Part shown: piece by piece, positions 15,943-16,992 of the stretch
Position numbering within the stretch: the stretch's first letter is position 1
How the letters are laid out: each line of letters begins with the position of its first letter
Virus record (IMG/VR): IMGVR_UViG_2531839131_000018
Length of the DNA: 41,766 nucleotides
Source of the DNA: a virus
Lineage: Duplodnaviria > Heunggongvirae > Uroviricota > Caudoviricetes
Reading direction: 5' to 3' (one strand)
Notes under the pieces: model-generated
Seen by the model: only the letters and a program-made list of their open reading frames with translations
Told to the model about the DNA's origin: nothing
Databases searched by the model: none
Position numbers and translations under genes: made by a program

Positions 15943-16992
15943 ATGGCTAATACTGTAAAAATATCCAGTTGTGAGTTAATCAACGCTGATTGTCTGGAAT
16001 TTATCCAGACCTTACCGGAAAATTCTGTCGATCTGATAGTCACAGACCCGCCATACTTTAAAGTGAAGCCCGAGGGCTGGGATAACCAGTGGAAGGGCGA
16101 CGATGATTACCTGAAATGGCTGAATCAGTGTCTGGCGCAGTTCTGGCGGGTACTGAAGCCCGCAGGAAGTCTTTACCTGTTCTGTGGTCATCGCCTGGCA
16201 TCTGACACCGAAATCATGATGCGTCAGCGCTTTAATGTGCTGAACCACATTATCTGGGCGAAGCCGTCAGGGCGCTGGAACGGGTGCAACAAGGAAAGCC
16301 TGCGGGCGTATTTCCCGGCAACAGAGCGCATTCTGTTTGCAGAACATTATCAGGGGCCATACCAGCCCAAAAATGACGGCTATGAGGCAAAGGGGCGTGA
16401 GCTAAAACAGCACGTCATGGCCCCGCTGATTTCTTACTTTCGTGATGCGCGTGAATCACTGGGAATAACGTCAAAACAGATAGCGGAAGCCACCGGAAAG
16501 AAAAACATGGCTTCGCACTGGTTTGGTACCAGTCAGTGGCAATTACCGAACGAGGGTGATTACAACAAATAGCAGGCGTTGTTTGCGCGTGTTGCGGCAG
16601 AAAAGCATCAGCGAGGGGAACTGGAAAAGCCACACCACCAGCTGGTCAGCACATACAGTGAACTGAACCGGCAATATGCCAGCCTGCTGGAAGAGTATAA
16701 ATCTTTGCGGCGTTATTTTTCCGTATCAGCTGCCGTTCCGTATACGGATGTCTGGACGCATAAATCCGTGCAGTTTTATCCGGGCAAACATCCCTGTGAA
16801 AAACCGGCAGATATGTTGCGGCAGATAATTGAGGCCAGCAGTCACCCTGGTGATTTGGTTGCGGATTTTTTTATGGGTTCAGGTTCAACGGTAAAAGCGG
16901 CGATGGCACTGGGGCGTTGTGCGATTGGTGTTGAGCTGGAGACCGGACGTTTTGAACAGACAGTCAGGGAAGTTCAGGATTTAATCGTTTGA
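15943..16992 (+). pseudogene. DNA methyltransferase (beta-class N6-adenine or N4-cytosine) interrupted by one in-frame TAG at 16570-16572
   Basis: N-terminal part has motif IV VTDPPY; C-terminal part (same frame) has motif I FFMGSGST; the two ORFs 15943-16572 and 16579-16992 are separated only by the amber codon. Confidence 0.75.

Follow-up and report, generated by a model that had tools for sequence, protein, structure and literature searches.

Gene order at the locus

The window, by which we mean the whole stretch of 41,766 nucleotides analysed here, carries on its plus strand (15943-16992) a single 350-codon reading frame for a beta-class N6/N4 DNA methyltransferase. Its translation contains only one internal stop, a TAG at codon 210 (16570-16572) in the context AAA TAG CAG. 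Both the lone in-frame amber and the presence of motif IV and motif I in one frame had been put forward in the original prediction, and both were confirmed by translation (DPPY and FFMGSGST; Table 1). The list of open reading frames splits the gene into 15943-16572 (209 aa) and 16579-16992 (137 aa, with a TTG start). In a Pfam search, the repaired protein matched PF01555 (N6_N4_Mtase) over residues 29-340 with E=4.9e-44, and the N- and C-terminal fragments matched positions 1-110 and 132-219, respectively, of the 221 positions in the profile. Since these are consecutive parts of the same model, the two reading frames represent one gene cut in two and not two genes. Within the target-recognition domain, the first fragment covers the beginning and the in-frame remainder what follows; the Rossmann domain is likewise divided, with its first half, including catalytic motif IV, on the first fragment and its C-terminal half on the remainder. 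Apart from the TAG, the gene has no second lesion.

Table 1. Features in and around the interrupted methyltransferase gene (positions in the window)
Feature	Position	Strand	Basis
Q-type antiterminator, 273 aa, genuine TAG stop	14545-15366	+	PF03589 on identical locus L007
Terminator-like hairpin with T run, downstream of Q and ahead of the methyltransferase gene; candidate late-operon terminator	15447-15466	+	Consensus scan only
Second terminator-like hairpin and T run, upstream of the methyltransferase gene	15779-15796	+	Consensus scan only
N-terminal methyltransferase fragment, 209 codons, ending at the premature TAG	15943-16572	+	ORF list, translation, PF01555 positions 1-110
Catalytic motif IV, DPPY, residues 35-38	16045-16056	+	Translation
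Premature amber TAG, codon 210; from TTG (Leu) via T-to-A at 16571	16570-16572	+	Homologue codon typing
In-frame remainder, codons 211-349 and TGA stop; mechanical ORF start TTG 16579	16573-16992	+	ORF list, PF01555 positions 132-219
AdoMet-binding motif I, FFMGSGST, residues 309-316	16867-16890	+	Translation
tRNA, anticodon CAU (Met or Ile2 type, ileZ-like)	17042-17117	+	ARAGORN; Rfam 72.5 bits
Degenerate tRNA-like element (argN-like), anticodon would be UCG	17125-17198	+	Rfam 23.7 bits, gathering score 29
tRNA-Arg, anticodon UCU (argO-like)	17215-17291	+	ARAGORN; Rfam 70.1 bits
TerB-like gene (141 aa) and DUF3927 gene (50 aa), cargo slot after the tRNAs	17467-18041	+	

The surrounding genes (RusA, Q, a small ORF, the methyltransferase, tRNAs, holins, lysozyme and terminase) place the locus in the late region of a lambdoid prophage. 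On the identical locus L007 the order is DUF968, RusA, Q (PF03589), a 65-aa ORF, the methyltransferase, a TerB-like gene, DUF3927, two holins, a GH108 lysozyme, terminase and portal. Annotated relatives of the gene are likewise preceded by RusA, Q (or a DUF1133 protein) and the 65-aa ORF, and are followed by a variable set of tRNAs or none, after which come cargo genes, stx among them, and lysis genes. In phiP27 (L24) and Stx2-converting phages an intact methylase lies between Q and the ileZ/argN/argO tRNAs. The phiP27 order of Q region, small ORF, methylase and tRNAs is that of the window, and the two differ in the slot after the tRNAs, which is occupied by the TerB-like and DUF3927 genes in the window and by stx2e in phiP27. 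The Q antiterminator also weakly matches the DnaJ CXXCXGXG zinc-finger family. Further upstream, genes for a ParE toxin, a PaaA2 antitoxin and an HTH repressor lie at 6098-7004 on the minus strand, adjoining the YdaS/YdaT genes in the immunity region, and a Hok/Gef-family toxin ORF of 70 aa lies at 11787-11999 on the plus strand in the nin-like region.

The two hairpins that precede the methyltransferase gene are candidates for late-operon terminators overridden by Q. Such an arrangement would fit late, Q-dependent expression and agrees with the published finding that M.EcoGII, the relative described below, is silent in lysogens. A consensus scan of 15300-17500 gave no match to a sigma-70 promoter, a negative that carries no weight given how poorly late promoters often fit the consensus. 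We infer that the gene would be expressed only upon prophage induction.

The gene was correctly described in the original prediction as lying directly upstream of a phage tRNA cluster, and ARAGORN and Rfam bear out the two clear tRNAs (17042-17117 and 17215-17291), with the anticodons CAU and UCU, neither of which is an amber suppressor. Between them lies a degenerate element that was not called by ARAGORN. It has a non-canonical T-loop (CUCGGGU), and the 9-nt loop on its anticodon stem, CUUUCGAAA, would give the anticodon UCG and not CUA. We considered this element as a suppressor tRNA and rejected it on account of that anticodon; it resembles the argN-type pseudo-tRNA seen in Stx phages. The tRNA set that follows this methyltransferase gene varies by prophage (L001, 2600-2909; L002, 2576-2890; L004, 2600-2853): one prophage has Ile-Lys-Thr-Gly, one has none and a reverse-strand ORF instead, and phiP27 has ileZ and argO.

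Relationship to M.EcoGII

The repaired protein of the window aligns collinearly with M.EcoGII over its full length and is identical at 306 of 350 positions (87%), the M.EcoGII sequence compared being a machine-read copy of the one printed in the supplement of PMC11551740, with a few reading errors. It is also 87% identical to the methyltransferase of phage 1720a-02, an enzyme that has been named "very similar" to M.EcoGII (PMC5778455). Because of these two identities the gene is, judged by its sequence, a lambdoid-prophage orthologue of the non-specific N6-adenine DNA methyltransferase M.EcoGII.

M.EcoGII and M.EcoGI, from prophages of E. coli O104:H4 C227-11, are non-specific N6-adenine DNA/RNA methyltransferases (Murray et al. 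2018, PMC5778455). M.EcoGII is a 349-aa beta-class enzyme that is prophage-borne and silent in the lysogen, and its constitutive expression is deleterious (PMC5778455). The window gene shares with it the length of 349 codons, the prophage location and the beta-class order of an N-terminal DPPY, a central target-recognition domain and a C-terminal FxGxG, as in the M.EcoGII family. It lacks the uninterrupted reading frame for the whole enzyme, since M.EcoGII has leucine at residue 210 and the window copy has TAG there and encodes just 209 residues. An intact form of the window orthologue may have the same sequence-independent m6A activity. Members of the M.EcoGII family are widely used as biotechnology reagents.

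Relatives annotated as DNA methyltransferases and 83-95% identical by megablast are present in 1915 of 5426 complete E. coli genomes (about 35%), the top match among these complete genomes being only 95% identical. They also occur in phiP27 and many Stx2-converting phages at 83-91% DNA identity. The relatives in the PDB are the beta-class enzymes M.RsrI, CcrM and M.MboIIA (E = 1e-15 to 1e-24), which resemble the window protein in both halves of the fold, the N-terminal one with DPPY and the C-terminal one with FxGxG. Their matches cover the two Rossmann halves only; the central target-recognition domain, in which the stop is located, had no match in the PDB, as is also stated in PMC11551740.

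Origin and distribution of the amber codon

Codon 210 was typed in 94 loci, of which nine have TAG (all of them in the carrier set) and 85 lie outside the carrier clone. All 85 of the latter encode leucine (TTG 41, CTG 21, TTA 14, CTT 7, CTA 1), so across these copies Leu210 is conserved through synonymous change. The original prediction had proposed looking in homologues for a sense codon, CAG or TAC, at this position; a sense codon is indeed present, and in every case it is one for leucine and neither of the two proposed. Four annotated homologues are intact CDSs of 349-352 aa, in which codon 210 reads TTG or CTT.

Only two bases separate the window gene from L014, the nearest intact allele: codon 210 is TTG in L014 and TAG in the window, and codon 262 carries a synonymous TCG/TCA difference. 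At position 16571 a T-to-A transversion has occurred. On record, 176 contigs from many E. coli strains encode the protein of L014. Comparison of the window gene with its homologues gave dN/dS values of 0.04-0.17 in both halves, and these values together with the lack of a second lesion point to a recent inactivation.

The exact 209-aa product is encoded on nine contigs. Six of the places listed for it are NCBI assemblies with accessions in one series (GCA_000357185, GCA_000357205, GCA_000357325, GCA_000357365, GCA_000357505 and GCA_000358795), and a Logan contig, recorded for nine samples, makes the seventh. The protein records for the 209-aa product are named E. coli P0299917.5 and P0299917.10 and come from draft genomes of enterotoxigenic E. 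coli (ETEC), which sets aside the idea, prompted by the 95% identity of the top complete-genome match, of a host other than E. coli. Every TAG contig with a named source is ETEC P0299917.x. The P0299917 isolates were obtained from one patient in Dhaka with cholera-like ETEC diarrhoea and comprise nine closely linked isolates and one distinct isolate (Sahl et al. 2015, PMC4462620). The exact TAG 29-mer was found on two IMG/VR contigs and was absent from the GTDB representative genomes and from the metagenome collection. The first of the two contigs is the window (one mismatch in 12.6 kb), and the second is a mosaic relative, with a single synonymous difference in the methyltransferase gene. A degenerate 26-base pattern with TAG, TAA or TGA at codon 210, meant to detect stops here across all lineages of the family, likewise recovered only the two carrier contigs in IMG/VR and none among the GTDB representatives. 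On the evidence of these carriers, the TAG allele belongs to a single ETEC clone.

A sequencing or assembly error, with TTG as the true codon and an intact gene, might be suspected, as the lesion is a single base and the carrier genomes are drafts from about 2012-2013 in which the repeated prophage regions seem to be assembly chimeras. The same A is nevertheless found at 16571 in all nine contigs, representing at least six separately sequenced sibling isolates, and in the independently assembled Logan contig. Neighbouring polymorphic sites vary and flip among the assemblies and 16571 never does, nor does it lie within a homopolymer. The agreement between the sibling assemblies and the Logan contig excludes a random sequencing error, and we regard an artefact of any kind at this base as almost certainly not the explanation.

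The assemblies are also informative about the number of copies. In sibling assemblies the sequence upstream of the TAG-carrying late block (at least 14653-23020) takes at least three different forms, and SNP states are mixed among the assemblies. Divergence of the upstream sequence was seen between window positions 12862-14652 and loci L005/L008 and L009-L012. The most economical interpretation is a host with two or three co-resident lambdoid prophages, whose late regions are nearly identical and have been collapsed in the draft assemblies. If so, every copy would carry the TAG, and the allele would have spread or persisted across the copies, which is compatible with neutrality or with selection.

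How often the gene decays elsewhere was assessed in IMG/VR. A protein-seeded survey retained full-length matches only and dropped both TAG contigs, which biased its result that all copies were intact. It was replaced by a sample of 120 loci collected with a conserved DNA pattern blind to the reading frame. Twelve of these were cut by contig ends, and of the 108 complete loci 104 were intact and four were otherwise disrupted: frameshifts interrupt L102 near codon 86 and L201 near codons 197-200, residues 139-300 are missing from L172 through an internal deletion, and the alignment of L189, which has an altered 5' end, does not begin until residue 39. The intact homologues are all single ORFs of 348-361 aa. 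Within this sample, sporadic, lineage-specific decay appears normal for this prophage methyltransferase gene, and the amber allele is one more case of it.

Taken together, the assemblies and homologues compared here show a mutation that is real, derived, recent and limited to one ETEC clone. It has the attributes of a recent nonsense pseudogene, in that the lesion is defined against a near-identical intact allele, is reproducible across assemblies and is found in one lineage.

Predicted consequence for the gene product

AlphaFold models of M.EcoGII consist of a Rossmann domain formed by residues 1-134 and 260-349 and a four-helix target-recognition domain at residues 160-237 (PMC11551740). With these limits, a stop at codon 210 splits both domains. 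The single T-to-A transversion, by turning Leu210 (TTG) into an amber codon (TAG), would end translation after 209 residues. Of the Rossmann fold the predicted product would retain the half with DPPY, and of the four-helix target-recognition domain roughly one half. Residues 260-349, that is, the other Rossmann half with the AdoMet-binding FxGxG motif, would be missing. Because of this loss, the 209-aa product should be inactive.

Low-level function could in principle persist if a host amber suppressor or basal readthrough of the UAG-C context, for example by a near-cognate tRNA that inserts Gln, allowed a little complete enzyme to be made, perhaps amounting to attenuation of a toxic, non-specific methyltransferase. 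A C following the stop codon makes for a relatively leaky, inefficient termination context (PMC5289835), the remainder of the frame is undamaged, and attenuation could be tolerated or even favoured given that constitutive M.EcoGII is deleterious (PMC5778455). However, the stop occurs in one clone only and is not conserved among homologues as a programmed readthrough site would be, all 85 typed non-carrier copies having leucine. The invariance of Leu210 over five synonymous codons suggests that other residues are probably disfavoured at this position. The sequences flanking the stop are the same as in L014, so the leaky UAG-C context was inherited and did not evolve as a readthrough signal; the C itself belongs to a CAG codon that does not vary within the family. 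Folding of the 80 nt downstream of the TAG against shuffled sequences revealed no readthrough-stimulating or otherwise unusual structure (z = -0.31). Elsewhere in the prophage, Q and a 130-aa ORF both end in a genuine TAG stop, and the window encodes no CUA-anticodon tRNA. On these grounds we consider function by suppression or readthrough very unlikely, although UAG-C readthrough may give traces of a full-length protein with another residue at position 210.

A prophage-wide reassignment of TAG was also considered and was rejected because TAG ends Q and the 130-aa ORF. The other prophage genes that were checked, taken at their correct ORF coordinates, contain no internal stop; one printed for the DUF4406 gene was an artefact of table coordinates that were not a multiple of three.

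The gene might alternatively encode a split enzyme, with termination at the TAG, reinitiation at TTG 16579 seven bases further on, and reassembly of the 209-aa and 137-aa fragments into an active form. An in-frame TTG start does lie two codons past the stop, and the cut, lying within the target-recognition domain, separates the two halves of the discontinuous Rossmann domain. Some C5-methyltransferases, such as M.AquI and M.EcoHK31I, are known to act as two polypeptides. In a two-subunit methyltransferase the homologues would have separate genes for the two halves and the second half would have a start of its own. Instead, the enzyme is a single chain in all homologues examined, so the possibility that the halves are normally separate genes can be dismissed, and TTG 16579 has no Shine-Dalgarno sequence above background, the predicted duplex being -2.7 kcal/mol against a mean of -3.1 kcal/mol for the window. 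The cut also lies inside the four-helix bundle, and L014 differs just by the stop and one synonymous base, so that nothing in the gene is adapted to a split state. Reconstitution from two fragments is, in our estimation, extremely unlikely.

A further reading combines these ideas with the toxicity of the enzyme. The amber might hold a toxic, sequence-independent methyltransferase down to a trace, by way of basal UAG-C readthrough or of reinitiation with fragment complementation, and might have become fixed in all of several co-resident prophages because full expression is costly. We give this proposal very little chance of being correct.

Three explanations had originally been offered for the interrupted frame, namely a pseudogene, a sequencing error, or a gene whose expression depends on amber suppression or stop-codon readthrough. 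The leucine codon in every one of the typed non-carrier homologues supports the first, the second is excluded by the identical TAG on the nine contigs, and the third finds no support in a stop that is confined to one clone, retains the flanks of L014 and is used as a normal terminator elsewhere in the prophage. The window therefore very probably contains an M.EcoGII-family prophage gene with a recent, derived and clone-specific L210amber mutation, whose product should be inactive. It is an ordinary pseudogene of an already known family and not a recoding signal.

For the biology of this prophage, the in-frame amber is a loss-of-function allele, with no evidence of recoding or of dependence on a suppressor. 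In annotation, the paired "DNA methylase family protein" records of the ENC41016 and ENC41017 types are to be merged and flagged as one pseudogene. In methylome work on the strains that carry it, the prophage should add no non-specific m6A on induction.
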